Position numbers and translations under genes: made by a program. A DNA stretch of 64,000 bases from a virus, in IMG/VR virus record IMGVR_UViG_3300050821_004383, positions 1 to 64,000 of that record. One strand, given 5' to 3'. A model generated the notes under the pieces. It saw only the letters and a program-made list of their open reading frames with translations, was not told the DNA's origin and ran no database searches. Below, in pieces: positions 8,398 through 58,374 of this stretch; position 1 is the first letter of the stretch; each line of letters opens with the position of its first letter.

Positions 8398-9423
8398 TTA
8401 CTGAATCGCGGGCACGCTATCGATATAACGAATACGCTGAGTGTTCGTTCCGGTAGCTGGCGGAAGAGTAACTGTTTGGTGGAATTTATAACTGCACCAC
8501 CCCCCAATTGTCGAAACAGGGTCGAACGATGATGCTGGCGCGTCTGTTACGACACGGCAGTCAATCGTCTTCCAATCCCCGTCATCGAGGTCGGTGTCGC
8601 CCGGAACCTGCAACCACACGCCAATCATGGCATAGTTACCGAACACGTATGTACGGTAGCCAATCTTGCCGCTGCCGCTGTAGTTAGCGGTCGTGGTTAC
8701 GAACGGGGTCTGCATGAAGCCGATGTTGGTGCCCGGGAGAACAATGACCTTGTTCTGGTCGCTGCCCGCCATAGCATCAAACTTCTCCATGTTTTCGTAC
8801 TTCCACAAATCAGCGATGCTGTTGTTCACAGTCGTTGAGTTGTAGATGTCGCCCAACACGTTCGGGCTGATTGCGCCCAAGAACATGCCGCGCTTGCAAG
8901 GCAACACGTTCTTTGCAACAAGCTGCTGCTTCAATTCACGGATGGTGCCTAGGTCAAGGGTGAACGGAGATGCCAGCAAGCTGCTCTGGTTAACCTGAGA
9001 GTCCACAGTTGACGCGCTATCTGCTACTGCCGAGTACAACTCGCTGATGGACTGCCCAGCTTGGTAGCCAAGTTCCACGGCGCTGTTGCCAACAAGTTCG
9101 TCAATCGCTGCTGCGATAGCAAACGACGAGAAGTTGCTGTAGTTGTTCCACTCACCAATCTGTGCTGGCGATGACAACTGGCTGATGACTTCCGGGTTGC
9201 CCACGGTACCATCAGAGTTCTGGATAACGTCACCAGATAGGGTGTTGTACTGGAAAAACGTACGGTTTACACCCATGTGGAGACCCTGCACACGGCGTTC
9301 TGCCGCGCCAACGAATGCGTTGGTGTTGCCCTTCAAGTTCGGAATCAATTCCTTATCGAAAATGATTGCCTGAGCCGTTAGGACGTTTGCTACGTTTGAT
9401 GCTGACGGGTTTGGACCTGTCAT
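8398..9423 (-). CDS. Major capsid protein (N4 gp56-like, HK97 fold)
   Basis: 341 aa directly after scaffold; 'AIDELV...ELGYQAGQS', 'YRTYVFG.YA', 'DPVSTIGGWCSYKF' motifs. Confidence 0.85.
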   Translation of the reverse strand: MTGPNPSASNVANVLTAQAIIFDKELIPNLKGNTNAFVGAAERRVQGLHMGVNRTFFQYNTLSGDVIQNSDGTVGNPEVISQLSSPAQIGEWNNYSNFSSFAIAAAIDELVGNSAVELGYQAGQSISELYSAVADSASTVDSQVNQSSLLASPFTLDLGTIRELKQQLVAKNVLPCKRGMFLGAISPNVLGDIYNSTTVNNSIADLWKYENMEKFDAMAGSDQNKVIVLPGTNIGFMQTPFVTTTANYSGSGKIGYRTYVFGNYAMIGVWLQVPGDTDLDDGDWKTIDCRVVTDAPASSFDPVSTIGGWCSYKFHQTVTLPPATGTNTQRIRYIDSVPAIQ

Positions 9424-24609: not shown

Positions 24610-24684
24610 TGGTTCCGGCGTGTGGATTCGAACCACAATTAGCGGATTCAGAGTCCGCAGTCCTGCCAGTTAAACGACATCGGA
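24610..24684 (-). tRNA. tRNA-Gln(CTG)
   Basis: Cloverleaf, loop CTCTGAA, encoded CCA. Confidence 0.9.
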
Positions 24685-24793
24685 ACAGAAATTGGAGCGG
24701 TGTCCTCGTACTCACTAGAGCGATGGGGTCCTTCTCACCTAGGCACTCACCGCCGAGTGTACTCCCAGATTACCAGACCTACGATTACGAAAT

Positions 24794-24869
24794 TGGTTGG
24801 ATGCGAAGGATTCGGACCTTCATCTGACTGATTCAAAGTCAGCCGTGTTGCCAGTTACACCAGCGTCCA
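24794..24869 (-). tRNA. tRNA-Gln(TTG)
   Basis: Loop CTTTGAA; T-loop TCCGAAT; CCA. Confidence 0.9.
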
Positions 24870-24878
24870 ACAGAAAAT

Positions 24879-24953
24879 TGGTCCTACACCGTGGAATCGA
24901 ACCACGTACGCCCGCCGTTTCAAGACGGCGCTCTACCAATGAGCTAGCGTAGG
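24879..24953 (-). tRNA. tRNA-Phe(GAA)
   Basis: Stem CCGTC/GGCGG, loop TTGAAAC; CCA. Confidence 0.85.
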
Positions 24954-24954
24954 A

Positions 24955-25041
24955 TGGAGGAAGAAGATGAAATCGAATCATCAACCCGCTAGAGTTGGCC
25001 TAGTGTTCGAAACTAGTTGAGCGCCTTGCTCACCATCTTCC
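24955..25041 (-). tRNA. tRNA-Ser(CGA)
   Basis: Loop TTCGAAC, long variable arm; CCA. Confidence 0.85.
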
Positions 25042-25511
25042 AAAACTTTTCTACGAATACGGTCTTTGTAATTCTTCTCACACTCGATGCAATCACGACG
25101 AAGACCGTTCCAATTAGTTCTATTCTTTGCAAATCTATCAACAGAGAAGAACTGTTTATGTGTTCGACACCAAGCCTTGCCTTCTGGTGGTGTTATACGA
25201 TTACAACTGGGTTTTCCCAGTGAACCTTGAATGTGGGGTGTATTACAACGCGTGTGAGAAAATGTCACATTATCTAAATCCCAAAACAACTCAGGAGAGC
25301 GATTCTCCCAAGGACGAATGTGCTCAATACTCAAATCATCAACAGACTCAATCATCTTACCACACTTCACACAAACACTGTCACCGTATTTTTGTAATTG
25401 ACGAAACAAAATCATCTTACGAAGACGATTTGCCGCTGCTCCGTGGGACATACCAAGTTGTTCTGCAATTCTAGCACTGCGTGCTGCATGTGATGCGTGT
25501 GAGTTACCCAT
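24981..25511 (-). CDS. HNH homing endonuclease
   Basis: Likely start MGNSHASH; 'CVKC...SIEHIRPW...NVTFSH..CN' plus C-terminal Cys domain; stop lies inside tRNA-Ser(CGA). Confidence 0.85.
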   Translation of the reverse strand: MGNSHASHAARSARIAEQLGMSHGAAANRLRKMILFRQLQKYGDSVCVKCGKMIESVDDLSIEHIRPWENRSPELFWDLDNVTFSHTRCNTPHIQGSLGKPSCNRITPPEGKAWCRTHKQFFSVDRFAKNRTNWNGLRRDCIECEKNYKDRIRRKVLEDGEQGAQLVSNTRPTLAG

Positions 25512-25551
25512 CGTCGTTGGCTCCTTTAAGCACTTGACTGATGTTTTCAAA

Positions 25552-25638
25552 TGGCGGATGATGAAGGAATCGAACCCTCTCGACCTTTCAGTCGGGACAG
25601 TTTTCAAGACTGCTGCTCCCCATGAAGCCCAATCATCC
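25552..25638 (-). tRNA. tRNA-Ser(TGA)
   Basis: Loop CTTGAAA, long variable arm; CCA. Confidence 0.85.
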
Positions 25639-25646
25639 GTAAAAAT

Positions 25647-26003
25647 TTAGGCTACTTTCTTCGCCTTGCGAATCTTCAAATAGTTTCTCACAGGAAACGT
25701 CATCGTGCCCGCTGCGCATGCAAACGGAAGCCATGAGTGTGCCGCGTCAACCACGCCCGCGTATCCGGATGCTGCTAGAAACGCTAGCACGATTGCCGGA
25801 CGAAGGACCCCGGCGTCCAAAAACGTACGGAACGGGTGAGCCTTCTCGGTGAACCACTTCATCAATTTGTTGCCTTCGGTCTGGCCGTAGTACCAGATGC
25901 CCCAGCGGGTCACAAACACATCTGTCAACATCGCCACGTACCAAAGAACGGCAGCGAAGTTGTAAGTAAAGTCTCCGTTCGGAAGCGTGCGGGGGTCGAA
26001 CAT
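25647..26003 (-). CDS. Membrane protein
   Basis: Start MFDPRT; 'D..T..G.....E.N' with hydrophobic helices; resembles the adjacent ORF. Confidence 0.55.
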   Translation of the reverse strand: MFDPRTLPNGDFTYNFAAVLWYVAMLTDVFVTRWGIWYYGQTEGNKLMKWFTEKAHPFRTFLDAGVLRPAIVLAFLAASGYAGVVDAAHSWLPFACAAGTMTFPVRNYLKIRKAKKVA

Positions 26004-26011
26004 TCGGTCTC

Positions 26012-26323
26012 CTAAACTGGTATCTTCAAATTTCTGATAGCTTCTCTGATGTGCGCGTACCCGGCTTGAAATGCAAAGCCTGCTGCCATCACGTAGCCCG
26101 CGTAAACCGAGAAACGATTCGCTAACAACCCAACCGCAACCTCGCCCGCGATAACAAGAGTGCCCAAGCCATAAACCTTCAATGTGCTGGGTCTGGGTCC
26201 GAACAGCCACGCTGTGTCGGCTTCGTAGTAGTCCGGATTCTTCAAGAACCGAACTGTTGTCCATCCATCGAATAATGCCGCGCCGGATAAAACCACCGAC
26301 GCCACTACTAGTGGTATGTTCAT
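26012..26323 (-). CDS. Membrane protein
   Basis: Start MNIPLVV; three hydrophobic segments, 'DGWTT...YYEAD'. Confidence 0.55.
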   Translation of the reverse strand: MNIPLVVASVVLSGAALFDGWTTVRFLKNPDYYEADTAWLFGPRPSTLKVYGLGTLVIAGEVAVGLLANRFSVYAGYVMAAGFAFQAGYAHIREAIRNLKIPV

Positions 26324-26328
26324 AAAAT

Positions 26329-26414
26329 TGGCGGAACGAGGAGGAGTCGAACCTCCACGTGCTTTCACACGCTGGTTTAGCAAACCAGTCCGGCTACCGT
26401 TTCGGCACCGTTCC
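26329..26414 (-). tRNA. tRNA-Ser(GCT)
   Basis: Loop TTGCTAA, long variable arm; CCA. Confidence 0.9.
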
Positions 26415-26457
26415 AGAAAATGTGGGGCGACCGGAGCCGCCCCGATTTTGTCTCAGA

Positions 26458-28140
26458 TTAAACCTCTACCGTAATACGAGGATTCGTCGGTGCGGCTGGT
26501 GGTGCTGGCGGCACGTTCGGTCCTGATGGCGGTAGCGATATCTGTACGCTTACCTCTGGCGGGTCTAGTGAAACCCACGTCACTGTGTTGTCCTGTGTGA
26601 TGGTATTCAACACTGGAGAGAACACTGGACGATGGGCTGCGTCACTGCTGATACCCGGAACAGAGACTTGCTGAAACGATTGGCTAACGCAATCGAATAC
26701 GATGTCCCCAACGTTGAACTGCTTGTTAGGAGCATAAACCGATAGCGTTGCGGATAAGAACATGACAACTGAATCAGTGTCCAGTGTCACTGCGCCTACG
26801 CGAGCCAGCAATCTGCCGTTGACTCTTACGCCCGTGTTAACGGTGATAGACGCTTGAGCCATGATTGTCCCGGAGAAGTTCGTTCCAACTCCGAGTGTTG
26901 CAGAACTGCCGACTTGCCAGAAAATGTTCGCCGCTTGTGCGCCGCCTAGCAATACGATGTTGCTGTTGCTAGCAGCGGTTGTAAGCGTTGAACCAATTTG
27001 AAAAATGAAAACCGCGTTCGGGTCTCCTAGTCCATCGAGAACCAGGGTCCCGGTGATGCCTACCGAACTTGCGTTCTTATAAACACCCGGTGTGAGAGTC
27101 AACCCGCCTAAATCACCCGGGAGAGCCGTGAACGGACTGCCGCTGGATGTGAGTCCAGAAGCCGATGCCGTTGCTGTCTCCGCCGTTGCTGCTGGGTTCG
27201 TCAACGTGATTGCTGTAATCGTCTGGGCTATGCAAACGAACGTTCCGTTGTTGGAAGCGTTAGTAAAGCCTGTGACCGTGAATCTTTGTCCAACTAGAGC
27301 GTTTCCTGCTGGGAAGGTTCCCACGTATGATGTATTTCCGAATGCGTCTGGTGCAGCAACGGAAGTTACAGGATACGGGCCTGTTGCAGAAAAACCGCCT
27401 ATGCCCGAAGGATTAACAGCGGATGCGGCTGCATTGTAAGCCGTTGTTAGTGCGGCCTGCGCTGCTGCTGCAACGAAGTCCCCGGCGTGAAACACGCCCG
27501 AGATTGCTGCTGGTGCTCCGAAACCAGTGATTGAAGTTCCCGGCCAAACTCCCACGTCACCCGCGACGGTTGTTGCGCCCGTGTTGGTGACAGTAGAACC
27601 TGCCAAGATTTCAAAACTGTTTGCCACTCCCACGTTTGGTGGGGTTGGGCTGGGACCGAACGGAACAGCGACGGAAAGAACGCCGACCGAGTTAGCACTT
27701 GAAATGCCGCCTGCGACCGATTCAATCTCGTAGCTGTAAACGTGGCCCGGGACAACTCCGAAATCCTCAAAGAACGGATTCGGTGTAGCAAGCGCCGAGT
27801 GTACCTCTGCGGTTGCGAACGAACTATTTAGTGTCAACGTTGTCGCAGAAGACGCGACGCATTGAAACTGCCCGTTGTTCGCGGAGTTACCGAAACCTGT
27901 AACGCGGAACACCAATCCTACGAAGGCGTTTGCTGCGCCACCGCTGATAACTCCAGTGTAAACGGCTTGACCGTTAGCGGACTGGGATACCGAGGATAAG
28001 ACGAGCGCTGGTCCTTGCTCAATCAGGCCAACGTTGTACGGAACTAAACTCTCATTTCCGGGTGCTGTACCACGGAAAATGTTGTAGCCATCGACCAGGG
28101 ACGGACTTGGGTCCCATGAGATGGTAATAGAATGTGTCAT
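26458..28140 (-). CDS. Ice-binding-like protein (DUF3494) fused to FN3 and virion modules
   Basis: 'FEILAGSTVTNTGATTVAGDVGV.PG', 'DLGGLTLTPGVY', 'GDPNAVFIFQIGSTL', 'AQAANIFWQVGSSATLG', 'NGRLLA..GAVTLD'. Confidence 0.9.
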   Translation of the reverse strand: MTHSITISWDPSPSLVDGYNIFRGTAPGNESLVPYNVGLIEQGPALVLSSVSQSANGQAVYTGVISGGAANAFVGLVFRVTGFGNSANNGQFQCVASSATTLTLNSSFATAEVHSALATPNPFFEDFGVVPGHVYSYEIESVAGGISSANSVGVLSVAVPFGPSPTPPNVGVANSFEILAGSTVTNTGATTVAGDVGVWPGTSITGFGAPAAISGVFHAGDFVAAAAQAALTTAYNAAASAVNPSGIGGFSATGPYPVTSVAAPDAFGNTSYVGTFPAGNALVGQRFTVTGFTNASNNGTFVCIAQTITAITLTNPAATAETATASASGLTSSGSPFTALPGDLGGLTLTPGVYKNASSVGITGTLVLDGLGDPNAVFIFQIGSTLTTAASNSNIVLLGGAQAANIFWQVGSSATLGVGTNFSGTIMAQASITVNTGVRVNGRLLARVGAVTLDTDSVVMFLSATLSVYAPNKQFNVGDIVFDCVSQSFQQVSVPGISSDAAHRPVFSPVLNTITQDNTVTWVSLDPPEVSVQISLPPSGPNVPPAPPAAPTNPRITVEV

Positions 28141-28334
28141 GAACTGCTCCTTGCACGCAATAAACTACATGCGCGTTGGGAGCAACGTGATACCCAGCTA
28201 GCTGACGCAACCACAATCCTGATTGTCGCACTCTATGGCGAGAGCGCGAGGACCGGACACATTCATTTTCAGTCACTTCCAAAGAAGTGAACCAAAAGGG
28301 AAGGAGGCTTTAACTCCGACTGACTACCTGATGC

Positions 28335-28439
28335 TTACTTCTTTGGATTACTTACACAAAATTTGCAAACTGGTCTTCTGTGAGGATGGCTGTAAATTAG
28401 TTCCTCTGCCAGTTTCTTGCATACGGGGCACATCTTCAT
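28335..28439 (-). CDS. Tiny Zn-finger protein
   Basis: Own translation MKMCPVCKKLAEELIYSHPHRRPVCKFCVSNPKK; GGAGG RBS. Confidence 0.5.
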   Translation of the reverse strand: MKMCPVCKKLAEELIYSHPHRRPVCKFCVSNPKK

Positions 28440-28533
28440 GGCTGTCACCTCCAGCCATAATACTACCACACCCGTGGTACCGCGTCTGTTCAATATTGGA
28501 CAGTACTGTTAATACAAGACACTTATCTAAAAT

Positions 28534-28609
28534 TGGCAGGTCATGAGGGATTCGAACCCCCACCGCATCGTTTTGGAGACGAGCATGCAACCAGTAACAC
28601 TTATGGCCT
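28534..28609 (-). tRNA. tRNA-Trp(CCA)
   Basis: Loop CTCCAAA; CCA end. Confidence 0.9.
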
Positions 28610-28618
28610 GTTGAAAAT

Positions 28619-28706
28619 TGGTGGAAAGTCGAGGACTCGAACCTCGGAAGCCCACAAGGGGCATCTGGTTTACAGCCAGAAGCAATTGCCGCTATGCGAA
28701 CCTTCC
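28619..28706 (-). tRNA. tRNA-Tyr(GTA)
   Basis: Loop CTGTAAA, long variable arm. Confidence 0.9.
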
Positions 28707-28778
28707 ACAATGCTAGTTGCGCCTCGGTGGCTCTATGGACTGCTCTCACCGATATGTTTAATGTCACAGCGCAAAACT

Positions 28779-28852
28779 TGGAGCCTCGTCGAGGAATCGG
28801 ACCCCGGCGTTCGCTTTACGAAAGCGACGTACTGCCACTATACTAACAAGGC
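28779..28852 (-). tRNA. tRNA-Thr(CGT)
   Basis: Loop TTCGTAA; T-loop TCCGATT. Confidence 0.9.
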
Positions 28853-28861
28853 TCGGAAAAT

Positions 28862-28935
28862 TGGAGCGAAATGCGGAAATCGAATCCGCGCCTGGACCTT
28901 GGCAAGGTCCCGTTCTGCCACTATACCAATCTCGC
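28862..28935 (-). tRNA. tRNA-Gly(GCC)
   Basis: Loop TTGCCAA; U73. Confidence 0.9.
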
Positions 28936-28947
28936 CCAGAAAATTTG

Positions 28948-29019
28948 CCGACCGTATTAGCCGTTATACGGACCCAGGTTGTTGAGACCCAGGAGAGGAT
29001 TCGAACCTCAAATCGTCGG
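28948..29019 (-). ncRNA. Circularly permuted tRNA-like RNA (YrlA/Y-RNA-like architecture)
   Basis: Order: CCGAC, T arm (TGAGG TTCGAAT CCTCT), closed acceptor hairpin (CCTGGGT/ACCTGGG), D arm (CGTA..TACG), GTCGG. Confidence 0.7.
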
Positions 29020-29081
29020 ACTTCTCGGACGCGTGGCTGGCCGTGTCACAGCCCTTTGGACTCGCGCTACCCGATTAGTAT

Positions 29082-29157
29082 TGGAGCACAATCGTGGATT
29101 CGAACCACGGTGACCGAGGTACAAGCTCGGTATATTGGACCGCTATATGAATCGTGC
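29082..29157 (-). tRNA. tRNA-Thr(TGT)
   Basis: Loop CTTGTAC. Confidence 0.9.
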
Positions 29158-29158
29158 T

Positions 29159-29232
29159 TGGAGCTTCGACGTGGAATTGAACCACGACTTGTTCCTTACC
29201 AAGGAACCGTTCTGCCGTTAGACTATCAAAGC
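29159..29232 (-). tRNA. tRNA-Thr(GGT)
   Basis: Loop TTGGTAA. Confidence 0.9.
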
Positions 29233-29243
29233 TCGGAAATTAT

Positions 29244-29708
29244 TTAGGCGTGGTCACCCTTGTCGCCCTTATCGCCTTTGTCACCCTTGTCGCCACGGTC
29301 GCCCTTGTCTCCTTTATCACCCTTGGAGCCTACTGCGCCGTCCTTGCCATCGACGCCTTTATCGCCTGCGTCGCCCTTATCACCTTTGTCGCCCGGGTCG
29401 CCCTTCAAACCGTGTACGCCGTTCTCGCCTGGGTCGCCCTTGTCGCCCTTCAAGCCATGCTCACCGTTGGTGCCAGCATCGCCTTTGTCGCCCTTCGGGC
29501 CGACTGGGCCGGGTACGCCTTGTGGTCCCACAGGGCCTTGGAGACCTTGTGCGCCGACCGGACCCGCGATACCGCGCGGACCTAGAGGGCCTGCTTGACC
29601 TGCCGGACCTGCTGGTCCGACGTGCTTCTTCAAACTCAAAATGAATGCAGCTACAGACACTGCGGCTGTAACAGCAGAAACCAATTCAGCGGGGGCAATC
29701 ATTGGCAT
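29244..29708 (-). CDS. Membrane-anchored collagen-like protein
   Basis: Start MPMIAPAEL (AAGGAG RBS); N-terminal hydrophobic helix then GXY repeats (GDKGDK). Confidence 0.85.
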
Positions 29709-29734
29709 CTCCTTATTTTTAACTTCTACAAAAT

Positions 29735-29810
29735 TGGAGCGGCGAACGGGATTCGAACCCGTACGTTCTGCTTGGAAGGCAGACATGCTAGCCGTTAACA
29801 TCACAGCCGC
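29735..29810 (-). tRNA. tRNA-Gly(TCC)
   Basis: Loop CTTCCAA. Confidence 0.9.
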
Positions 29811-29818
29811 TTTGAAAT

Positions 29819-29897
29819 TGGTTGCGGAGGTGGGATTTGAACCCACGATAACAAGGTTATGAGTCTTGTGTTTTAGACCAGGCTAAACTACCCCGCT
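29819..29897 (-). tRNA. tRNA-Met(CAT), initiator-like
   Basis: Loop CTCATAA; 1:72 mismatch. Confidence 0.85.
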
Positions 29898-29907
29898 ATA
29901 GAAAATT

Positions 29908-29983
29908 TGGTTCTGGTCGCTGGATTCGAACCAGCTACCTTCCGCTTATCGAGCGGACGCCCGTCCACATGTGCTCGACCAGA
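29908..29983 (-). tRNA. tRNA-Ile(GAT)
   Basis: Loop TCGATAA (C33). Confidence 0.85.
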
Positions 29984-29991
29984 ACAGAAAT

Positions 29992-30067
29992 TGGTGGACC
30001 GTTCCGGCTCTGCCCCGGACGCCTCGGAGGTGCAAGCTCCGCGTTCTCCTGAATGAACTAACAGCCC
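29992..30067 (-). tRNA. tRNA-Ala(TGC)
   Basis: Loop CTTGCAC; G3:U70 present; atypical T-loop GGCAGAG. Confidence 0.85.
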
Positions 30068-30071
30068 AAAA

Positions 30072-30491
30072 TCATCGTCCACGTTTAGTATCGTGGCACT
30101 CTTTACAGTTTATTTGAAACCCACTCCAACGAGTTTCTTTCTTATAAAAGTTATCCACCGGAAGAAACTGCTGATGACCACCGCACCATGACGTGCCTTC
30201 TGGTCCAACAAACTTTCGTAAACTGCCTCCGTGATGCACATGGGGACGATTACATTGTAAATGCGAGAACGCTATATTATCCAAATCCCAAAAGAGTTCA
30301 GCAGAACGACCTTCCCATGGAAGCTTATGCTCTATGCTTAACTCTTCTACGACTAAAATCTCTTTGTTGCACTTGAAACAAATATTTTCTTTCAACTTTT
30401 TCAAAAGATGAAACAAAATATTCTTTCTTAATCTTCCATTGGCCGTGCCGTGAGGCATGCCTAGCGTTGCAGCTTTCTGCGTATTACTCAT
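30072..30491 (-). CDS. HNH homing endonuclease
   Basis: 'CFKC...SIEHKLPW...NIAFSH..CN'; paralogue of 24981-25511. Confidence 0.85.
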   Translation of the reverse strand: MSNTQKAATLGMPHGTANGRLRKNILFHLLKKLKENICFKCNKEILVVEELSIEHKLPWEGRSAELFWDLDNIAFSHLQCNRPHVHHGGSLRKFVGPEGTSWCGGHQQFLPVDNFYKKETRWSGFQINCKECHDTKRGR

Positions 30492-30529
30492 AATCGTTAA
30501 CCCTCTTTGGGTTGTTGATTAAGTTAAAT

Positions 30530-30606
30530 TGGTACTCGCGGCGGGATTTGAACCCGCGTTCTTGGCTTGAAAGGCCAGCGTCCTGGGCCGACTAGACGAC
30601 ATGAGC
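30530..30606 (-). tRNA. tRNA-Glu(TTC)
   Basis: Loop CTTTCAA. Confidence 0.9.
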
Positions 30607-30689
30607 ACTACATGCGCCGATACAATTCGCTTTTTGGGGAAGTGGCTTTATGCATTTATAGCCAATCCGATAATTGTATCGTACGAACT

Positions 30690-30765
30690 TGGTAGCGTCG
30701 GCGGGATTTGAACCCGCGTGACCAGATTGAGAATCTGGCATCCTAGACCACTAGATGACATCGCC
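30690..30765 (-). tRNA. tRNA-Glu(CTC)
   Basis: Loop TTCTCAA. Confidence 0.9.
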
Positions 30766-30773
30766 ACAGAAAT

Positions 30774-30866
30774 TGGTTGTCAGCCTCGGTGCCGACCCGA
30801 GTCGTCGCGCTAATCAGGCGCTCTCCTCGACTTATAAGGTCGAGCCGCATGCCGATGCTGCCGACA
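30774..30866 (-). tRNA. Atypical tRNA with TAT (Ile) anticodon and long variable arm
   Basis: Acceptor TGTCGGC/GCTGACA+ACCA; 6-bp anticodon stem, loop CTTATAA; V-arm GCGC..GCGC; T-loop GTCGGCA. Confidence 0.7.
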
Positions 30867-30954
30867 AAAGGCTGGGCCGACGGGGAATCTAACCCACAAT
30901 GGGGCAGCCTCTGGCGTTCCTTCCAGCGCATCCCATCACTCGTCCCAGAGAAAT

Positions 30955-31030
30955 TGGTAGCTCGTAAGAGAATCGAACTCTTCCTATCCGGGTGTAGGCC
31001 GGATGCATACGACCAGTTTGCTAACAAGCT
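30955..31030 (-). tRNA. tRNA-Val(TAC)
   Basis: Loop CCTACAC (C33). Confidence 0.85.
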
Positions 31031-31037
31031 ACAGAAA

Positions 31038-31154
31038 TCAACGGTGGTAATAATGAATCCAGAGAACCAGGGCACTCGCGCTAATCACTACCCCCAGGAT
31101 GTTGCACACTGTCCGTATCAGTGCCATCCACTGGTCGAATGTTAGCCTTTTCAT
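31038..31154 (-). CDS. Small membrane peptide
   Basis: Own translation MKRLTFDQWMALIRTVCNILGVVISASALVLWIHYYHR. Confidence 0.45.
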   Translation of the reverse strand: MKRLTFDQWMALIRTVCNILGVVISASALVLWIHYYHR

Positions 31155-31341
31155 TGTCCTTCTTCTTTGTTCTGGTCTCGTACCACTTTCTTCTCAACCC
31201 CAAGTATTCGAGTTGAGCCTTCAAACTTTCTTCCGCTGCGTGGCGCATCGCGCGGTCATCGCGCCAAATGCCCACCAGGAAGTACAACGCGACTAAGTCA
31301 ACTACCAACGCCGCAACCGAAGCTACGTTCGCTATAGTCAT
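31081..31341 (-). CDS. Small membrane-anchored protein
   Basis: 86 aa with N-terminal hydrophobic helix. Confidence 0.5.
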   Translation of the reverse strand: MTIANVASVAALVVDLVALYFLVGIWRDDRAMRHAAEESLKAQLEYLGLRRKWYETRTKKKDNEKANIRPVDGTDTDSVQHPGGSD

Positions 31342-31435
31342 ATTCGCTCACAAAGTTGTGCCCCAACTAGTAACTTCAACAGACCGTCAGGGTCTTGCCG
31401 CGCGTATCTGCTAGTTTACTCGGCGCGGAAAAATT

Positions 31436-31511
31436 TGGTCGAGCGCCAGAGACTCGAACTCTGACCCTACCCGTTAAAAGCGGGATATGCTGCCCCTAAC
31501 ACCTGCACTCG
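31436..31511 (-). tRNA. tRNA-Lys(TTT)
   Basis: Loop CTTTTAA. Confidence 0.9.
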
Positions 31512-31796
31512 ACGGTATTTCTTTGTGAAACTGTGTCCAAGCGCCTTAGTCAACTCTTCGTGGCACTCTTGACATTGCAGTTCACATTTCAAAACTTCTT
31601 TCCAAAACTTTTCATCTGAATACGAAGAACCATCAGCGAGTGTGAACTCTTTTGTTTCCGGGTCCTTGTGATGAAACTGTAATTCTTCTTGCGACCCGCA
31701 AGTCTCGCACCGCGTTCCAAGAAACATGATTGCGCGAATGCGACGAAGTTGCCAGCGGCGCTTCATGTACTCATTCATGTATTCATTTGTACTCAT
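31467..31796 (-). CDS. HNH endonuclease
   Basis: 'CETCG...LQFHHKDP..K...KCELQCQECH'; stop lies inside tRNA-Lys(TTT). Confidence 0.85.
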   Translation of the reverse strand: MSTNEYMNEYMKRRWQLRRIRAIMFLGTRCETCGSQEELQFHHKDPETKEFTLADGSSYSDEKFWKEVLKCELQCQECHEELTKALGHSFTKKYRRVQVLGAAYPAFNG

Positions 31797-31802
31797 AAAA
31801 AT

Positions 31803-31879
31803 TGGTGCGCCGCCTCAGACTTGAACTGAGACCAAGCCTCCTTAAGAGGGAGGTATTCTGCCGCTCGAAATCGCAGCGC
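31803..31879 (-). tRNA. tRNA-Lys(CTT)
   Basis: Loop CTCTTAA. Confidence 0.9.
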
Positions 31880-31892
31880 ACTGAAAATTATT

Positions 31893-32187
31893 TGGTTGCG
31901 CTATAGCCCGGTTTCTGTCGAGGACGAACATTCCTCTAAGCACGCTACCCGCTCGTCATCCTGCTCAATAAGCAGTCAGAGCCTATTTGCGCTTGCACCC
32001 GTGTGGAGTGCCTTCGCTCGAATGAGGGTTTCCAACATGTGAAGATGGATAACCCTACGAAGCCTTACCCGAATCCTTGCGGACCCCGCATCTTCCACGG
32101 CACGGTGTTGAGATGTGACCGGAACTTCCTCGCTGACGTTTAGCCACTATCCGGACTCATACGCCATCGCGTTCGTCTACGCTACCA
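31893..32187 (-). ncRNA. rnpB: Phage-encoded RNase P RNA
   Basis: CR-I GAGGAAGTTCCGGT and CR-V ACAGAAACCGGGCT form P4 with bulged U; P2 GACGAAC/GTTCGTC; P1; GGTGCAAG; P15 with GGT; P16/P17. Confidence 0.9.
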
Positions 32188-32300
32188 AAATTAATCCGGG
32201 GGAGGTTTTCGTTACCCGTCCCGGCACCCAAACGATTCGACTAGTCTACTTCGAGTGTTGCCCACAAGGGGCACCCCCGCACGTGTAGGGCCGACAAACT

Positions 32301-32377
32301 TGGACTCCTCGGCTAGACTGTAACTAGCTAAGAGCGGGTTTGCAATCCGCCGTCTCGACATCTTCGACATCGAGGAG
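32301..32377 (-). tRNA. tRNA-Cys(GCA)
   Basis: Loop TTGCAAA; U73; atypical T-loop TTACAGT. Confidence 0.85.
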
Positions 32378-32382
32378 AAACT

Positions 32383-32468
32383 TGGTGCGCCGCACAGGAT
32401 TCGGACCTGTACGCCATTTCTGGCCGGGGGTTTTAAGTCCCCTACGTCTGCCGTTCCGCCAGCAGCGC
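32383..32468 (-). tRNA. tRNA-Leu(TAA)
   Basis: Loop CTTAAAA, long variable arm. Confidence 0.9.
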
Positions 32469-32522
32469 AATATCTACCCGGCTTGCTGTATATCCTTCAA
32501 CAGTGTTCGCCACCGGGAATCT

Positions 32523-32611
32523 TGGTCGCCCGCCCCGGAGTCGAACCGGGACTCTACTTTATTCGAACCGCGTTTTGAGTGCGGCGCGTCTGCCAGTTCC
32601 GCCAGCAGGCG
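32523..32611 (-). tRNA. tRNA-Leu(CAA)
   Basis: Loop CTCAAAA, long but weakly paired variable arm. Confidence 0.85.
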
Positions 32612-32613
32612 AT

Positions 32614-32688
32614 TGGTAGCCCATGAAGGACTCGAACCTTCATCGCTTGATTCGTAGTCAAGCATCCTATCCATTGAACGAACAGGCC
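32614..32688 (-). tRNA. tRNA-Arg(ACG)
   Basis: Loop CTACGAA. Confidence 0.9.
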
Positions 32689-32698
32689 ACTGTAAAAT

Positions 32699-32776
32699 TG
32701 GAGGCCCCGGTCGGATTCGAACCGACTTTTGTACGGGTTAGAACGCCGTTGAGATATCCATTTTCTCGACGGAGCC
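32699..32776 (-). tRNA. tRNA-Arg(TCT)
   Basis: Loop GTTCTAA, C31:C39 mismatch, A20 present. Confidence 0.75.
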
Positions 32777-32785
32777 TCTGAAACT

Positions 32786-32872
32786 TGGTGGGCCGCGAGG
32801 GATTCGAACCCCCACGCTTTTCACGGCACTGGTTTCTAAGACCAGCATGTCTGCCAATTCCATCAGCAGCCC
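32786..32872 (-). tRNA. tRNA-Leu(TAG)
   Basis: Loop CTTAGAA, long variable arm. Confidence 0.9.
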
Positions 32873-33027
32873 ACAGAAATCCTGGCGGTATTTGTCATCG
32901 CGCCCCGCCGGAAGCGCATCGGATGATGTTTAGTCACCGAGAGTTTTGCCCCTTACCAGTGCACGAGGCCACGCACCCAGTAGCTAGCTGGGGATGTTTA
33001 ACTCTCTGTTGCAACGTCGTACAAAAT

Positions 33028-33101
33028 TGGTCAGGAATCGTGGAATCGAACCACGGCCTCATGCTTCCGACGCACGTAGACTACCACTATCAGAATACCT
33101 G
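33028..33101 (-). tRNA. tRNA-Pro(CGG)
   Basis: Loop GTCGGAA. Confidence 0.85.
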
Positions 33102-33110
33102 ACGTAAAAT

Positions 33111-33185
33111 TGGCTCCATCCCTAGGATTCGAACCTAGACCTGTTCGGTTAACAGCCGAGCGTCCTACCGTTGGACCAGAATGGA
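33111..33185 (-). tRNA. tRNA-Asn(GTT)
   Basis: Loop CTGTTAA. Confidence 0.9.
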
Positions 33186-33192
33186 ACTGAAC

Positions 33193-33573
33193 TCAATGCC
33201 CGGTAGTTTGATATTTTATTCGACGACGTTCTGTTGTGTACACTTTTCTCATGTACCCAGCAACTTGTCCTCTTCGAACTCGTATCGCTTCTTCGGGCGA
33301 ATACTTTCTTCTAATTCGACGGGCATCTGTGTTGCAGGCTCTGTGACTGAAAGCGATGTTCTCCAAAGAGAAGAACACGGTCCTCGGGTCACTGCTGTGC
33401 AACCACGGCTCTTTGTGGTCTATCGAGAGGTCTCGACTTTCCGCAATTTGCTTACCGCATCGAAAACAAAAATCTCTTTTCACTTCCTTCACTAACCCGA
33501 AAAGAATTTCTTTTCTAAGTTGGTGACAGGCTGTTCCAAACGGAACACCTAATTGCTGTTGTTTCTTATCCAT
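33193..33573 (-). CDS. HNH homing endonuclease
   Basis: 'CFRC...SIDHKEPW...NIAFSH..CN'; third paralogue. Confidence 0.85.
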   Translation of the reverse strand: MDKKQQQLGVPFGTACHQLRKEILFGLVKEVKRDFCFRCGKQIAESRDLSIDHKEPWLHSSDPRTVFFSLENIAFSHRACNTDARRIRRKYSPEEAIRVRRGQVAGYMRKVYTTERRRIKYQTTGH

Positions 33574-33670
33574 TCAAACCATCCTTTAAGATGGTTCGAA
33601 TCCGATACTGTACCAGCCACTCGGTTTAAGTCCGAGAACTTTTACAACCCGGGCGTTACTCCGGTGAAAT

Positions 33671-33748
33671 TGGCGGTCCATACGGGATTTGAACCCGTGG
33701 TCTTCTCCGTGACAGGGAGACGAGGACTCCTGACTCCTCCAACAGACC
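33671..33748 (-). tRNA. tRNA-Asp(GTC)
   Basis: Loop CTGTCAC. Confidence 0.9.
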
Positions 33749-33757
33749 GCAGAAAAT

Positions 33758-33836
33758 TGGTCGAGGAACCTGGATTTGAACCAGGGGTCTCATGCTTCCA
33801 AAGCACGCGGGAACGGCCAGACTTCCCCATTCCTCG
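33758..33836 (-). tRNA. tRNA-Pro(TGG)
   Basis: Loop TTTGGAA. Confidence 0.9.
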
Positions 33837-33999
33837 AAAAATTTCTCGCTTTCCTCAGCGTCGCCACTTAAGGCTAGGTGGACTATCTGCGAGATGCTGA
33901 CCCGTCACTGGGCCACTTGATTCTTTAGTTGACCGTGTAAATGCCGGGTCCCATCGGTGTTGCTCGTCCCAAACTCTCTGTGTCTTTCATCGTGAAACC

Positions 34000-34028
34000 A
34001 TCCTAGCACAGTTCTCGAACTTTGTCAA
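34000..34028 (-). promoter_or_regulatory. Sigma70 promoter driving the tRNA array
   Basis: TTGACA-17-TAGGAT with TG extension. Confidence 0.75.
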
Positions 34029-34047
34029 GCACTATTTTCGAGAATCT

Positions 34048-34362
34048 TTACTTCTTCGAATAAGCGCGGCCTGGGTAGTTACGAGCGTATGCGTGAGCGT
34101 CGTCTCCCGGCTGCTCGGTCTGCTTGCCGATGTGCTCCATGCTGCACGGCAATCCCTTGTGGGAACCGTTGGCGCTTACGCCCATCGAGTTCGAACGTCC
34201 GGCCTTCAATGCGGCTGCATCGTGAGAAGTCTCGTGACGAACCTTCTCGGCCTTGGGTGTGCTACGGCCTGGATACTTGTGCGCGTGCGGCTGGTCGTGG
34301 GTCATCACTGTCTCGGGTGCGTGGGCCATGCCCGCCGCTGTCTTTTCGCTGTACTTCGCCAT
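34048..34362 (-). CDS. Hydrophilic hypothetical protein
   Basis: 104 aa, internal repeat 'HA....YPGR'. Confidence 0.55.
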   Translation of the reverse strand: MAKYSEKTAAGMAHAPETVMTHDQPHAHKYPGRSTPKAEKVRHETSHDAAALKAGRSNSMGVSANGSHKGLPCSMEHIGKQTEQPGDDAHAYARNYPGRAYSKK

Positions 34363-34424
34363 TTTCTCATTCCTCGCGTTGCCTCACCTTTCGGTACGGG
34401 GCACGCTTCGTACTTCTAAATTTT

Positions 34425-34501
34425 TGGGGTGGGTGATGGGTCTCGAACCCACTCTGGCCCGATTCACAGTCGAGCGCGTCACCTGTTTCGCCTCACTCAC
34501 C
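34425..34501 (-). tRNA. tRNA-His(GTG)
   Basis: Loop CTGTGAA; encoded G-1 and C73. Confidence 0.9.
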
Positions 34502-34992: not shown

Positions 34993-35169
34993 TTATGGAT
35001 AAATCTTCTCGTACAACCAACCTGCCATCGAGACGCCGAGTCCGACGTAAGCAACCAGCGGGTGACGGAGAACCAAGCCGCCGAATGCCAGCATGTAACC
35101 GACGAACTGGAGCCAAGGTTGAATCTTGATGTATTGGTCAATGCTGTTGAAAATCGTTGAGAGACTCAT
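34993..35169 (-). CDS. Small membrane protein
   Basis: Own translation MSLSTIFNSIDQYIKIQPWLQFVGYMLAFGGLV... Confidence 0.5.
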   Translation of the reverse strand: MSLSTIFNSIDQYIKIQPWLQFVGYMLAFGGLVLRHPLVAYVGLGVSMAGWLYEKIYP

Positions 35170-35333
35170 ATCACTCCGTCCTTCTTAAGTCTTAACATGT
35201 CACCAACGAAATGAACCGCGAATGCCACACTAAACAGAACCTGTGATAGTCCTCGAAGAAACAGGAGAACGGCTAGCGCTGCAACGAAGCCTGCTGTTTG
35301 AATCACTAAAATCGTTTTGTCTGAGAACTTCAT
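35166..35333 (-). CDS. Small membrane protein
   Basis: Own translation MKFSDKTILVIQTAGFVAALAVLLFL... Confidence 0.5.
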   Translation of the reverse strand: MKFSDKTILVIQTAGFVAALAVLLFLRGLSQVLFSVAFAVHFVGDMLRLKKDGVI

Positions 35334-35334
35334 C

Positions 35335-35448
35335 TCAAGTCCAAGGTAGAACGTACTCGGTGTAAATCACTAGAACAGCGAAAATAATCATGACGACCAC
35401 AGCGATAGCGCCGAGAACTACGAGTCCACCGAGAGCAATCTTCTTCAT
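35335..35448 (-). CDS. Small membrane peptide
   Basis: Own translation MKKIALGGLVVLGAIAVVVMIIFAVLVIYTEYVLPWT. Confidence 0.5.
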   Translation of the reverse strand: MKKIALGGLVVLGAIAVVVMIIFAVLVIYTEYVLPWT

Positions 35449-35767: not shown

Positions 35768-36015
35768 GCGAGTGCTCTCTGGTAGAAGACGAACCACTTA
35801 GTGATTCTGGGTTCTTCTCCGCGCGTCTTCAACCACATCTTCTCGCCGGGTCGGAGAACGTAAACGGCCTTGTCGTGGGTTAGTTCCACTTCATGCTTGC
35901 CGACGTTGTGGAACTGGAACTGCTTTCTAAAGTCGCTCGGGTCCATAGTGACGGTGCACTGGACTCCTGCGTCCCAACAAATGTTATTGAACTCTTTCGA
36001 GACGTAATCAGGCAC
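35764..36015 (-). CDS. Hypothetical protein
   Basis: 83 aa, coupled. Confidence 0.55.
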   Translation of the reverse strand: MPDYVSKEFNNICWDAGVQCTVTMDPSDFRKQFQFHNVGKHEVELTHDKAVYVLRPGEKMWLKTRGEEPRITKWFVFYQRALA

Positions 36016-36304
36016 GGGAGGTCTCGGACAAGAATCTGTAACTCTGTCCGGCTCGGTGACTTAACTCAGCGGCGGCTTCCGCCACGGAGTCGTCTATCGC
36101 GGACGCAAGAGCGAAGCTGGAGAAGTTCGCGTAATCCGCGTAGCCGCTAATGACAGCGTCCTGCCCCATGATGTACGTTGTGTACGCCGCTGGTGCAGCA
36201 ACGGGTGCCACGCAAGCGGGTCCCTCGGAAAGGAGGATGCTTGGGGCGACTGCGGCCCCCACTGCTCCCACCCCTAGCCATTGAAGGAACTTGCGGCGGT
36301 TCAC
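36008..36304 (-). CDS. Tat-signal protein made of major-capsid-like fragments
   Basis: MNRRKFL twin-arginine motif; 19/31 aa identical to a segment of the capsid protein at 8398-9423. Confidence 0.75.
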   Translation of the reverse strand: MNRRKFLQWLGVGAVGAAVAPSILLSEGPACVAPVAAPAAYTTYIMGQDAVISGYADYANFSSFALASAIDDSVAEAAAELSHRAGQSYRFLSETSRA

Positions 36305-36921
36305 GGTCTCGGTGCCTTCGGTCGTCCTAGGAGAAACGCGGATTGCGCTTCACGAAGGTCGTTAAGAAGTTCAGCCTCTGCTTCCAATCTTTGAACTCGC
36401 GATTCCAAATCTGTAGTCGTGTCGTAAACGCCGGACAACTTCTTGTTGACCCAAACGTGGTCGGACGGCATCGACGGCGCTGGTGCTGGGTTGCCCAGCG
36501 ACTTCTCAATCTTGGTAACACGCGCTTCCACGCCTACCATGTGCTGGTAAGCAGCGTTTCCTACGCCGACCTGACTTTCAACTTGGCCGACGCGCTCGTT
36601 CAAGCGCTGAATCTGTTTCAACAGCGCTTCCACATCTTTGCGAACTTGGTCGAAACCCTTCTGGGTCGATTCGCGGAGATTGACCAGCGATTGAACGTTA
36701 GACTGGTCGCGGAGGGTCTGCGCGGTCTCTCGCTTGTCGTTCACAGCGATGGCTTCATTCAGCTTCACGAGAATCTCTTCTTCTCGTTTGAATGATAGTT
36801 TCGCTACATCGATAACTCGGCTTTCTACCGCACGAATCTCGTCGGTGTTAGCGGCAGTTTTGCCGATTAAATCGAATACCAAGTCGATGATAGATGGCTT
36901 GGGGGTCTTCTTGTTTGACAT
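36301..36921 (-). CDS. Coiled-coil protein
   Basis: 206 aa with heptad pattern. Confidence 0.65.
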   Translation of the reverse strand: MSNKKTPKPSIIDLVFDLIGKTAANTDEIRAVESRVIDVAKLSFKREEEILVKLNEAIAVNDKRETAQTLRDQSNVQSLVNLRESTQKGFDQVRKDVEALLKQIQRLNERVGQVESQVGVGNAAYQHMVGVEARVTKIEKSLGNPAPAPSMPSDHVWVNKKLSGVYDTTTDLESRVQRLEAEAELLNDLREAQSAFLLGRPKAPRP

Positions 36922-37626: not shown

Positions 37627-38571
37627 TGGGTGCTTCCTATCCGGCGAACCGGGATTGGTACTTCATCGGTACTGCTAGCCCCGCTGTGCGGGTATAAGGT
37701 CTTAGCTCAAAAAGTGTAGTACACTGTAATCCGTTGTTAGTGACGACACGTACGTGTCACGACGTATTTGCAATCCGACCCGGGTATCTGCCGGGGGACC
37801 CTAGTCACGTGACGGGTAGCGGTGTAGAGCGGGGTTGCCACGTAAACGTCTACGAGCCAGCGAAGCCGCCTAGGGGCGACTACGGCATGCCAACCACCTA
37901 CCCCCTACGATTGGCCCTCGACGTGCTGGGGGAGCAAATTTTCTACCAAACTCTAACTCATTGAAAACAAATAACATCATGTTTCGCTGCGAGTTCGCTG
38001 TCGGCTCGACACCTCAGTTCGTTGCGCGTTGCAAATCGTTGCAAGGAGGGTTGGCGGTTAATAAGGCATTAACCGTCAAAGGCCCGAAAGAGCGCTAAGT
38101 CGCTGATAATAAAGGCTTTCAGGTTTGGCAAGCCGATTGCTGGGGGAGCAAATTCGTTGCCAAACTTGCAAACTGTTGAAAATAAAGGATTTGTTGGAGA
38201 AATTTTCGTTCTTAAGATTTCGCTGGCAATCACTCGCGCGATACTCGGTCGAGTCACTGGCTTGTAAGTGATTGATTGTGTTGAGGTTGTTGGTGAGTTC
38301 GAGCGTTTAAGTTTGGGTTGATTCTGACTGAATCGTCACCCGAGACGGTCACCATCTTCCTTCCATAGGTAGCTGCTAACTGCCTCATTGATTTTATCTT
38401 CATTGTTGTCATCGTGTTATAGACTATGCTTCGAACGAGCCTTGATAACACTTCGAAGCCCAGGCCGGGAATCAAGCGTGTCACTCGCCTGCCGTTCGAT
38501 TGTGTCATAGTGTCATAATTGTGTCATAAATGACCTTTTTGGCACTTAACCTTATGAATCAACTGGTCTTA

Positions 38572-38797
38572 CACGAATAGTGTCATACGAAAAGGGCTGT
38601 TGCAGGTATTACGCGGCGTGCAAACTGATATCATTTCGAAAATAGAACCTTGATTTATATAATATATGATTTTTCATATTATTCTTCTGAATGTAACACC
38701 CCCCTCAAACTGATATCATTTCGAGGTGCAAACTGATATCATTTGTGCGCTCGCCTGTAATACCTGCAAACGGCATTTTCGTATGACACAATTCGTG
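38572..38797. repeat. Imperfect ~47-bp inverted repeat flanking an AT-rich core (origin-like)
   Basis: CACGAATAGTGTCATACGAAAA..TTGCAGGTATTAC vs GTAATACCTGCAA..TTTTCGTATGACACAATTCGTG. Confidence 0.8.
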
Positions 38798-39090
38798 CAA
38801 CTCTTGTAGAATGAGCACTATAAGCCACAAAAATAGTGTCATACAGCATCCATGACAGAATGACAGAATAGCCTAGATGACACGCAAACTGATATCATTG
38901 TGCGTCCAAACTGATATCATTGTGCGTCCAAACTGATATCATTGTGCGTCCAAACTGATATCATTGTGCGTCCAAACTGATATCAGTTTACGCGTGACCC
39001 CAACACCTGCACCCGCGTCAGTGACCCTCTCAAACTGATATCAGTTCGCGTACCAAGCCGCATTTCGTGCTTGACACTGATATCAGTTTC
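38621..39090. repeat. Ten copies of (CAA)ACTGATATCA, including a 22-bp tandem array (iterons/operators)
   Basis: Copies at 38621, 38706, 38729, 38885, 38907, 38929, 38951, 38973, 39031, ~39075; full palindrome AAACTGATATCAGTTT. Confidence 0.9.
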
Positions 39091-39100
39091 GTGCTATGCT
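39071..39100 (+). promoter_or_regulatory. Rightward sigma70 promoter with repeat in the spacer
   Basis: TTGACA-18-TATGCT with TG extension; spacer is CTGATATCAG. Confidence 0.75.
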
Positions 39101-56732: not shown

Positions 56733-56948
56733 ATGACTGAGTTCTACTTTGAAACAAGCGAATCAGACGGCACTTGTCGAGTTAACTTAACTCCCGGCTC
56801 CTACCCGCCGAAATTGTGCGGGAGAGAAGCGTGCGCTAAGGCTGACTTTCAGATGTTAGAAAGCGACGAGCGCGTTCACATCCCTGTTTGCAGAGAGCAC
56901 GGGAAGAAGATTGCTGCATCAGGAACAACCGTGAGGTTTGAAGAGTGA
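56733..56948 (+). CDS. Small Cys/His protein
   Basis: 71 aa, coupled. Confidence 0.5.
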   Translation: MTEFYFETSESDGTCRVNLTPGSYPPKLCGREACAKADFQMLESDERVHIPVCREHGKKIAASGTTVRFEE

Positions 56949-58165: not shown

Positions 58166-58374
58166 TTACTCTAATTAGAACTCCAAAATGTGACTACCCG
58201 TCGTGCTCGTGGCAAGGTCTCGTTAAAGATTTGCTGCGGTGGCTTGATGTTGGGGGACCATATCGTTTGTGCCCGGAGCACTATAAATTAAAGTATTTTC
58301 AACGTCAACAAGAACAGATGCAGGCTCAAAAGGATGAGTTTGACGCACTTGAAAAGGGAAAGTATGAGAAGTAA
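58162..58374 (+). CDS. Small Zn-binding protein inserted within the polymerase locus
   Basis: CDYPSC...LCPEH. Confidence 0.55.
   Translation: MITLIRTPKCDYPSCSWQGLVKDLLRWLDVGGPYRLCPEHYKLKYFQRQQEQMQAQKDEFDALEKGKYEK

Follow-up and report, generated by a model that had tools for sequence, protein, structure and literature searches.

T4 Imm/Sp and Cor are superinfection-exclusion proteins that reside in the cell envelope of the host. The envelope protein SieA of P22 blocks related phages via their ejection proteins gp16/gp20 (PMC10883804), and Ltp lipoproteins are further envelope proteins that block relatives, also by acting on virion proteins (PMC3952083). Here we describe a gene for a 98-residue protein, located on the minus strand at positions 36008..36304 of IMG/VR virus record IMGVR_UViG_3300050821_004383, which combines a predicted twin-arginine (Tat) signal with a diverged copy of a major capsid protein segment. 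We analyzed the first 64 kb of this record (64,000 nucleotides, in the following called the window). The product shares several traits with the exclusion proteins: it is small, accessory to the phage, patchily distributed and diverse in sequence, and it carries a targeting or anchoring sequence at its N-terminus. It differs from them in having a predicted Tat signal rather than a Sec signal, a lipobox or membrane spans; none of them derives from a copied capsid segment, and none resembles the small protein in sequence.

Three other groups of described proteins are relevant to this locus. With Tat signal peptides (TIGR01409, PF10518) the small protein shares an R-R-x-F-L-K motif at residues 3–8, a moderately hydrophobic, Ala/Gly-rich h-region of 12–16 residues and a subsequent helix-breaking proline, but its signal is unusually conserved for such a diverse family, and its cargo is a largely unstructured peptide of 60–70 residues, with inserts of 4–11 cysteines in some members, whereas the usual Tat cargo consists of cofactor-bearing enzymes. 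With HK97-fold capsid proteins of the N4-gp56 or Phage_capsid_3/4 kind, such as Tunturi_3 gp6 and the 341-residue capsid protein encoded in the window, it shares a core segment, yet it covers no more than ~15% of the capsid sequence, permuted and fused to an export signal, and cannot form the fold. With capsid-derived triggers of immunity and their sensors (the T4 Gol peptide with Lit, CapRel, Avs7/Dsr1) it shares the use of a short capsid stretch as a separable functional unit; those triggers act in the cytoplasm within the capsid protein, whereas here the segment is a separate gene product with an export signal.

The conserved core of the small protein (residues 49–98; 36011..36160, minus strand) corresponds to residues 87–138 of the capsid protein (9010..9165, minus strand). 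A BLASTP comparison aligned residues 50–88 to capsid residues 87–125 with 21/39 identities (E=5e-11), and in an all-against-all comparison of the 820 open reading frames (ORFs) of the genome, the two proteins were among the few paralogies detected (E=1e-8). The alignment of a profile of 20 small proteins to a profile of 28 capsid proteins with hhalign covered 52 columns, pairing residues 49–98 with 87–138 at a probability of 97.4% (E=1e-11), and a tblastn search with the small protein also reached the major head protein of phage Tunturi_3 (E=2e-6). The core follows roughly the consensus I-G-E-Y-A-D-Y-x-N-F-S-x-F-A, then A-I-D-E-x-V-x-x-A-A-x-E-L-G-Y-R-A-G-x-S, and AlphaFold2 (AF2) predicts approximately its last 30 residues with a local confidence (pLDDT) of 88–97. 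Judged by these alignments, residues 49–98 are homologous to capsid residues 87–138, as the initial annotation had proposed for the C-terminal part of the protein.

The identity of the capsid gene (8398..9423, minus strand), which is uninterrupted in this phage, is clear from several lines of evidence. In tblastn searches, 99% of its 341-residue product aligned at 37% identity with the protein annotated as major head protein in Tunturiibacter phage Tunturi_3, a 97.6-kb podovirus of Acidobacteriota (PMC11924767). The gene comes after those for the large terminase and the portal and a 432-residue ORF. Further, the product weakly matches PHROG 1357 (‘major head protein’), and its nearest neighbors in a protein language model (score 0.98) are clusters with Phage_capsid_3/4 or named N4-gp56 family major capsid protein. 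Searches of PDB sequences with capsid profiles returned only chance matches to kinesin and no solved relative. A complete HK97 fold (N-arm, E-loop, P domain and A domain, ~300+ residues) is absent from the small protein, in which only residues 49–98 and, weakly, residues 40–54 align to the capsid.

The N-terminal 24 residues (36233..36304, minus strand) begin with MNRRKFL, continue with an Ala/Gly/Val h-region that ends in VAP, and are predicted by AF2 to be helical from residue 3 to 24. Residues 2–8, N-R-R-K-F-L-Q, correspond to the Tat motif (S/T)-R-R-x-F-L-K. The TIGR01409 model matched the protein with 16.7 bits, exactly its cut-off of 16.7, and it matched 8 of 11 members of the family, with a best E-value of 4.7e-6. 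Among 140 members chosen by their core motif only, 130 have an arginine pair upstream of the core, usually at residues 3–4; the ten without it are N-terminally truncated ORFs, N-terminal fragments of capsids and three odd cases. After the arginine pair, phenylalanine is found at +3 in 123, leucine at +4 in 103, and lysine or arginine at +5 in 86 of 131 members. The uncharged stretch that follows has a median length of 16 residues and ends in A-P, so that the family consensus reads M-N-R-R-x-F-L-K, then 12–16 Ala/Gly/Val residues ending in A-P. This family-wide pattern bears out the Tat-like signal of the initial annotation; to judge from it, the N-terminus appears to be a Tat-type signal across the family, and the capsid look-alike behind it is probably sent to the cell envelope. 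We rejected a reading as a lipoprotein, as the residues ahead of a semi-conserved cysteine form no lipobox.

Between signal and core lies a linker of 10–90 residues, which is hypervariable across the family and may consist of a hairpin-like piece, a Cys-rich module (4 to 11 cysteines), a DPWCGSIAGEG module or unrelated sequence. Its type differs even among phages whose capsids are 92–96% identical, and in close relatives the hairpin-like piece is swapped for Cys-rich or other inserts. In the window, as in one subfamily only, residues 40–54 (36143..36187, minus strand) resemble capsid residues 254–270 (8614..8664, minus strand), which appear hairpin-like, with strands at 257–262 and 265–270 in a low-confidence model. 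The short segment YTTYIMGQDAVI does not match capsid residues 255–266 significantly by itself (BLASTP E=6.1). However, a 17-position hidden Markov model (HMM) built from 15 other family members had residues 254–269 as its best match in the capsid (8.1 bits), a score reached by 0 of 5000 shuffled capsids (best shuffle 5.9), and more than 12 diverged members each matched capsid residues 254–270 by BLAST, P0128 for example with 10/14 identities. Because the same HMM also produced one short chance match of 9.5 bits elsewhere in a six-frame translation of the window, we consider the support for this resemblance to be moderate. The colinear alternative, an alignment of residues 40–54 to capsid residues 79–92, is poorer (2 versus 6 identities, counted by hand). 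Since the capsid contains three strands ending in I-G-x-W (88–92, 267–270, 305–309), the exact junction is ambiguous. Of the permuted join of two capsid pieces that had been proposed for this protein, the main segment, residues 50–88, is thus firm, while the short piece has moderate support and is not significant alone.

By sequence and prediction, the protein is made of three modules, an arrangement that is constant across the family: a twin-arginine signal, a hypervariable linker and a conserved core of ~45 residues with a predicted helix-turn-helix. The AF2 model, computed from 111 sequences, has a helix at residues 3–24, an unstructured low-confidence region at 25–62, in which the hairpin-like piece, modeled in isolation, has no predicted structure, a short helix at 63–68 and a long helix at 72–97. 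The block means of pLDDT are 88 for residues 71–80 and 97 for residues 81–98, but the predicted TM-score (pTM) is only 0.35, so that the protein is predicted to have no compact domain; the model contains helices and disorder, and nothing resembling a capsid domain.

The ORF is a genuine accessory gene. It starts with GTG at 36304 and stops at 36008–36010, and it was identified from the ORF listing, its conserved start and the pattern of substitutions described below. Its start codon shares the four bases GTGA with the stop of the preceding ORF (36301..36921, minus strand), which encodes a coiled-coil protein of 206 residues; this overlap suggests that the two genes are translationally coupled. 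In six related records, the start codon of the homolog (ATG or GTG) is at the identical position, and a well-placed AAGG-like ribosome-binding site precedes it in three of them. The coiled-coil neighbor and the overlap are also present in relatives, and the order of a 230-residue ORF, the coiled-coil ORF, the small protein and an 83-residue ORF is retained wherever the small-protein gene occurs. The small-protein gene is third among the ORFs of the leftward arm, with the capsid gene 26.6 kb farther downstream, and lies where it had been described, near the upstream end of that arm and far ahead of the capsid gene.

The family to which this protein belongs is large. A word-based search found five metagenomic homologs of 75–113 residues, and an exhaustive profile search over 1.84 billion cluster representatives yielded 272 clusters (at 50% identity) with E≤1e-3, of which 93 had E≤1e-10; nearly all of the 272 have 75–135 residues and align with the profile from one end to the other. 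Models of Pfam, PHROG, NCBIfam and PADLOC recognize nothing in the small protein beyond the Tat signal. Among five neighbors tested, PADLOC gave a single marginal match, of the upstream coiled-coil protein to LmuB (E=0.009, 13.2 bits). One core pattern was without a match in reference prokaryote genomes, and P0169, the member most like the capsid, had none in viral contigs. In the literature we searched, no family or paper with this architecture is described, and the family is unannotated. Unknown functions in conflicts between phages and hosts and among phages reside mainly in small accessory proteins of phages, to which this family adds hundreds of unannotated clusters with a clear and testable architecture of Tat signal, hypervariable linker and capsid-helix copy.

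Within the group of phages with the capsid type of the window, the distribution is patchy. About 8 of 31 such IMG/VR records have the gene, with intact copies in G002, G013, G012, G008, G006 and G020 and in the window itself; the gene is found in the record behind L257 as well. G007 has a broken copy with stops. At the syntenic position of record G001, an ORF (L124, 1267–1689) constitutes a divergent, degenerate copy with a weak core motif, which has lost most of the hydrophobic signal (RRRNDWVAVAPS is left). Eight complete or near-complete relatives (94–100% by CheckV), whose capsids are 77–93% identical, do not have the gene, and neither do the isolate Tunturi_3 and any of 20 Tunturi_3-type records, 10 of them complete. 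No pair of host and phage in culture carries it.

Where present, the gene evolves much faster than its counterpart in the capsid. The central 33 residues of the capsid segment (92–124) are identical at 31–33 of 33 positions among eight related phages, whereas in the same core the small proteins share 16–23/33 with each other and 15–20/33 with the capsid. Pairwise dN/dS ratios (nonsynonymous to synonymous substitution rates) over the whole protein ranged from 0.10 to 0.57 in six relatives, with dS saturated (>1), which indicates a fast-evolving protein under purifying selection. Two expectations of the initial annotation, that relatives carry comparable genes and that dN/dS departs from 1 through selection on the protein, are therefore borne out by these data.

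Its description of the core as fragments of the phage's own capsid proved too specific. The nucleotide identity between the small-protein core and the capsid segment is 44–62/99 across relatives and 56/99 (33 codons) in this phage, which argues against recent copying. Over a 45-residue segment, the small protein has 22 identities to its own capsid type and 24 to that of the Tunturi_3-type clade, while the two capsid clades share 23/45 with each other; across the family, the identity to the capsid has a median of 19/45 and a maximum of 32/45. Since the small protein matches its own capsid no better than that of a distant clade, we consider the core to be an old paralog of the capsid segment rather than something recently copied from the resident capsid gene. 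In a tree of these 45 residues, the capsid clades are nested among the small proteins with weak support, and a single capture is not told apart from repeated ones. Among close relatives, a comparison of small proteins to own and foreign capsids does not discriminate, their capsid segment being invariant. Conservation among the small proteins is essentially confined to positions they have in common with the capsid, which recur every three to four residues along the long helix (read by eye).

These conserved helix positions point to one binding face, for which reason we favor mimicry. By the order of elements in the HK97 fold, capsid residues 87–138 would form a strand and the spine helix of the P domain, and residues 254–270 the P-domain hairpin. 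From what is known of Tat signals, the host Tat system would translocate the small protein across the inner membrane to its periplasmic face, where the protein would be either released or tethered. Capsids and small proteins conserve the same helix face, and the exported piece could thus imitate a capsid surface and bind its usual contact. The protein would then have a role in conflict at the envelope, the likeliest version being that it hinders superinfection by close relatives of the phage, for instance by binding virion proteins upon their ejection. We rank such an exclusion-like role first, at a probability of roughly 40%, based on the predicted location at the envelope, the patchy occurrence, the rapid evolution and the hypervariable linker, on the position of the gene near the start of its arm, and on the precedent of SieA and Ltp, which act from the envelope on virion proteins of relatives. 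If the imitation of a capsid surface is real, it would represent a new use of structural-protein mimicry and imply a partner that reads a capsid element at the envelope.

Several observations weigh against an exclusion-like role at the envelope. Concerning export, the Pfam TAT_signal model scores the protein at 18.8 bits, below its cut-off of 22.7, and, unlike in typical Tat signals, no conserved A-x-A cleavage site is evident across the family, so that the protein may be either released or anchored. Concerning mimicry, the AF2 model of the capsid (28 relatives at 72–96% identity) has a pLDDT of 31.7 and is unusable, so that the mapping of the segments to the P domain relies on the usual order of HK97-fold elements. 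Capsids do not enter the periplasm, and we know of no natural partner there for a capsid mimic. Finally, the small protein has no match in PADLOC and no sequence similarity to any known exclusion protein, and its gene is on the arm that also bears the structural genes, so that its expression need not be early.

The best-surviving alternative is that the likeness to the capsid is only historical: a fragment would have been captured once and its amphipathic helix reused, without mimicry, for an unrelated envelope function, such as the timing of lysis or a partnership with small membrane proteins encoded just downstream. Three successive small ORFs of 37, 55 and 58 residues with hydrophobic stretches do lie 0.6–1 kb downstream of the gene (34993–35448, minus strand), none of them with family matches, and are predicted to encode membrane proteins. 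The predicted structure, in which a signal helix and an amphipathic helix-turn-helix flank a disordered linker and no capsid-like domain is present, would suit such a reuse, as would the similar distance of the small protein to its own and the distant capsid clade.

A possible route for such a capture is apparent from the capsid genes of relatives, many of which (L016, L036, L012, L037, L142, L144, L146, L147, L149) are split by inserts of 200–930 bp at five recurrent sites: after residue 30, at 92/93 (GEW|NNY), at ~204, at 271/272 (IGVWL|QVPG) and at ~308–316. The insert at 92/93 in G015 (L146) contains a LAGLIDADG-type ORF and matches an Rfam group I intron with 35.5 bits (E=3.9e-6), short of the gathering score (50), while the shorter inserts in the capsid genes had no Rfam match. 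It is at sites 271/272 and 92/93 that the two capsid-like pieces of the small protein are joined, and recombination between introns located there could account for their permuted order. The coincidence was noted post hoc, and conserved sites are in any case preferred by introns.

For an unrelated function, however, it is unexpected that almost all conserved positions of the small proteins are shared with the capsid and that some members keep up to 32/45 identities to the segment. The independent chimeras with other capsid or terminase pieces, described below, further suggest that the choice of virion fragments was not accidental. We therefore view historical reuse as a serious candidate, if on the whole an unlikely one.

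Several proteins combine the same or a very similar signal with other payloads. In P0272, the Tat-like signal is followed by capsid residues 298–323 (17/27 identical, 63%, E=1e-8), in P0261 possibly by capsid residues 280–298 (E=0.007), and in P0253 by the hairpin and then unrelated sequence. On an unrelated viral contig, a 240-residue ORF (L265:3995–4717, plus strand) directly follows the large terminase gene (L265:1839–3998). It combines a very similar Tat-like signal (Pfam TAT_signal 18.2 bits) with a paralog of the nuclease domain of the adjacent terminase (35% identity over 223 residues, E=2e-37), in which the first catalytic aspartate motif is changed from GVD to GVQ in an alignment read by eye. 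The locus is a cassette site, as relatives (L261–L270) have other payloads behind the same signal, sometimes in tandem. One payload, in L266, has no paralog within its own, incomplete record, so that the pattern of a fragment of an own protein is not universal.

Together, the terminase chimera and the coincidence with intron sites give a hint of the origin of such genes and of a possibly general pattern. One may speculate that phages take paralogous fragments of their own virion and packaging proteins (here pieces of the capsid P domain and a terminase nuclease domain that seems catalytically inactive), attach a Tat signal and employ them as envelope mimics against related phages or host defenses. 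As a general and unrecognized strategy this seems to us unlikely, slightly more so than historical reuse; were it true, Tat-tagged fragments of this kind would constitute a new category.

The initial annotation had connected the gene to capsid sensing by CapRel and Lit, and by a related reading the small protein could be a decoy for capsid-sensing immune proteins in the cytoplasm (Lit/Gol-like, CapRel-like or Avs-like), whose Tat signal would tether the sensor to the membrane or carry it out as a hitchhiker. We found nothing that ties the gene to these systems. CapRel and Lit act in the cytoplasm, whereas a Tat signal sends a protein out of it, and export would thus remove the decoy from the compartment of its targets. 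Capsid and terminase proteins are indeed common triggers of immunity (bioRxiv 10.64898/2026.01.04.697583), which would agree with the payloads seen here; the apparent loss of the first catalytic aspartate in the terminase copy is what might be expected of a decoy, and fast evolution and a patchy distribution fit an arms race. Yet Avs7 recognizes its target as a whole fold over 3,700 square angstroms (bioRxiv 10.64898/2026.01.04.697583), which 45 residues cannot imitate, and a true copy of an epitope would be expected to trigger a sensor rather than to block it. Considering also that the protein matches no PADLOC or anti-defense family, we regard a cytoplasmic decoy as distinctly improbable.

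A role in the phage's own head assembly, in which the protein would bind capsid subunits as a membrane tether, nucleator or timing inhibitor, appears more doubtful still. Its core is homologous to an element that, by analogy to the HK97 fold, packs against neighboring strands in the capsid, and the gene is on the same arm as the structural genes. However, the eight complete or near-complete relatives that are without it despite their similar capsids show that it is dispensable for assembly, by the predicted topology its capsid-like part would lie outside the cytoplasm, and it evolves far faster than the invariant capsid segment. A complex prediction for the capsid and the mature small protein scored 0.00 but, having been run without controls, is evidence neither way. 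Lastly, that the ORF is a chance occurrence or the decaying remnant of a capsid fragment, to which one might refer the degenerate and interrupted copies in G001 and G007, is hardly credible given hundreds of diverged full-length homologs with an invariant arginine pair, dN/dS ratios below 1, and a conserved start position and translational coupling.

With regard to its genomic setting, the window is the beginning of a record of 98,515 bp, which was judged 97% complete and represents a soil phage of roughly 98.5 kb, distantly related to the Acidobacteriota podophage Tunturi_3. The window consists of two divergent arms, which meet at a cluster of promoter-like sites (38200..39100, no strand assigned; by consensus scan only, 9 sites versus 3.6 expected). 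The plus arm carries replication genes (primase-helicase, DNA polymerase, deoxynucleoside monophosphate kinase). On the minus arm, small ORFs come first, followed by 23 transfer RNA (tRNA) genes, a tail-fiber-like gene, the large terminase (13326–15626), the portal (11221–13338) and the capsid gene.

Three observations outside the main argument may be added. A database protein of 315 residues, P0133, contains the small protein at residues 216–305 behind an N-terminal part that resembles the coiled-coil protein, although no formal alignment to the one in the window was made. It may be a fusion of the two or an artefact of gene calling or a frameshift; in a real fusion, the signal would act as an internal membrane segment. 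The array of 23 tRNA genes (24613–34500, minus strand) separates the region of small ORFs from the structural genes. Finally, the DNA polymerase on the plus strand (56945–60160) is seemingly encoded in two ORFs (56945–58165 and 59129–60160), between which lies an ORF for an HNH endonuclease (58334–59053).

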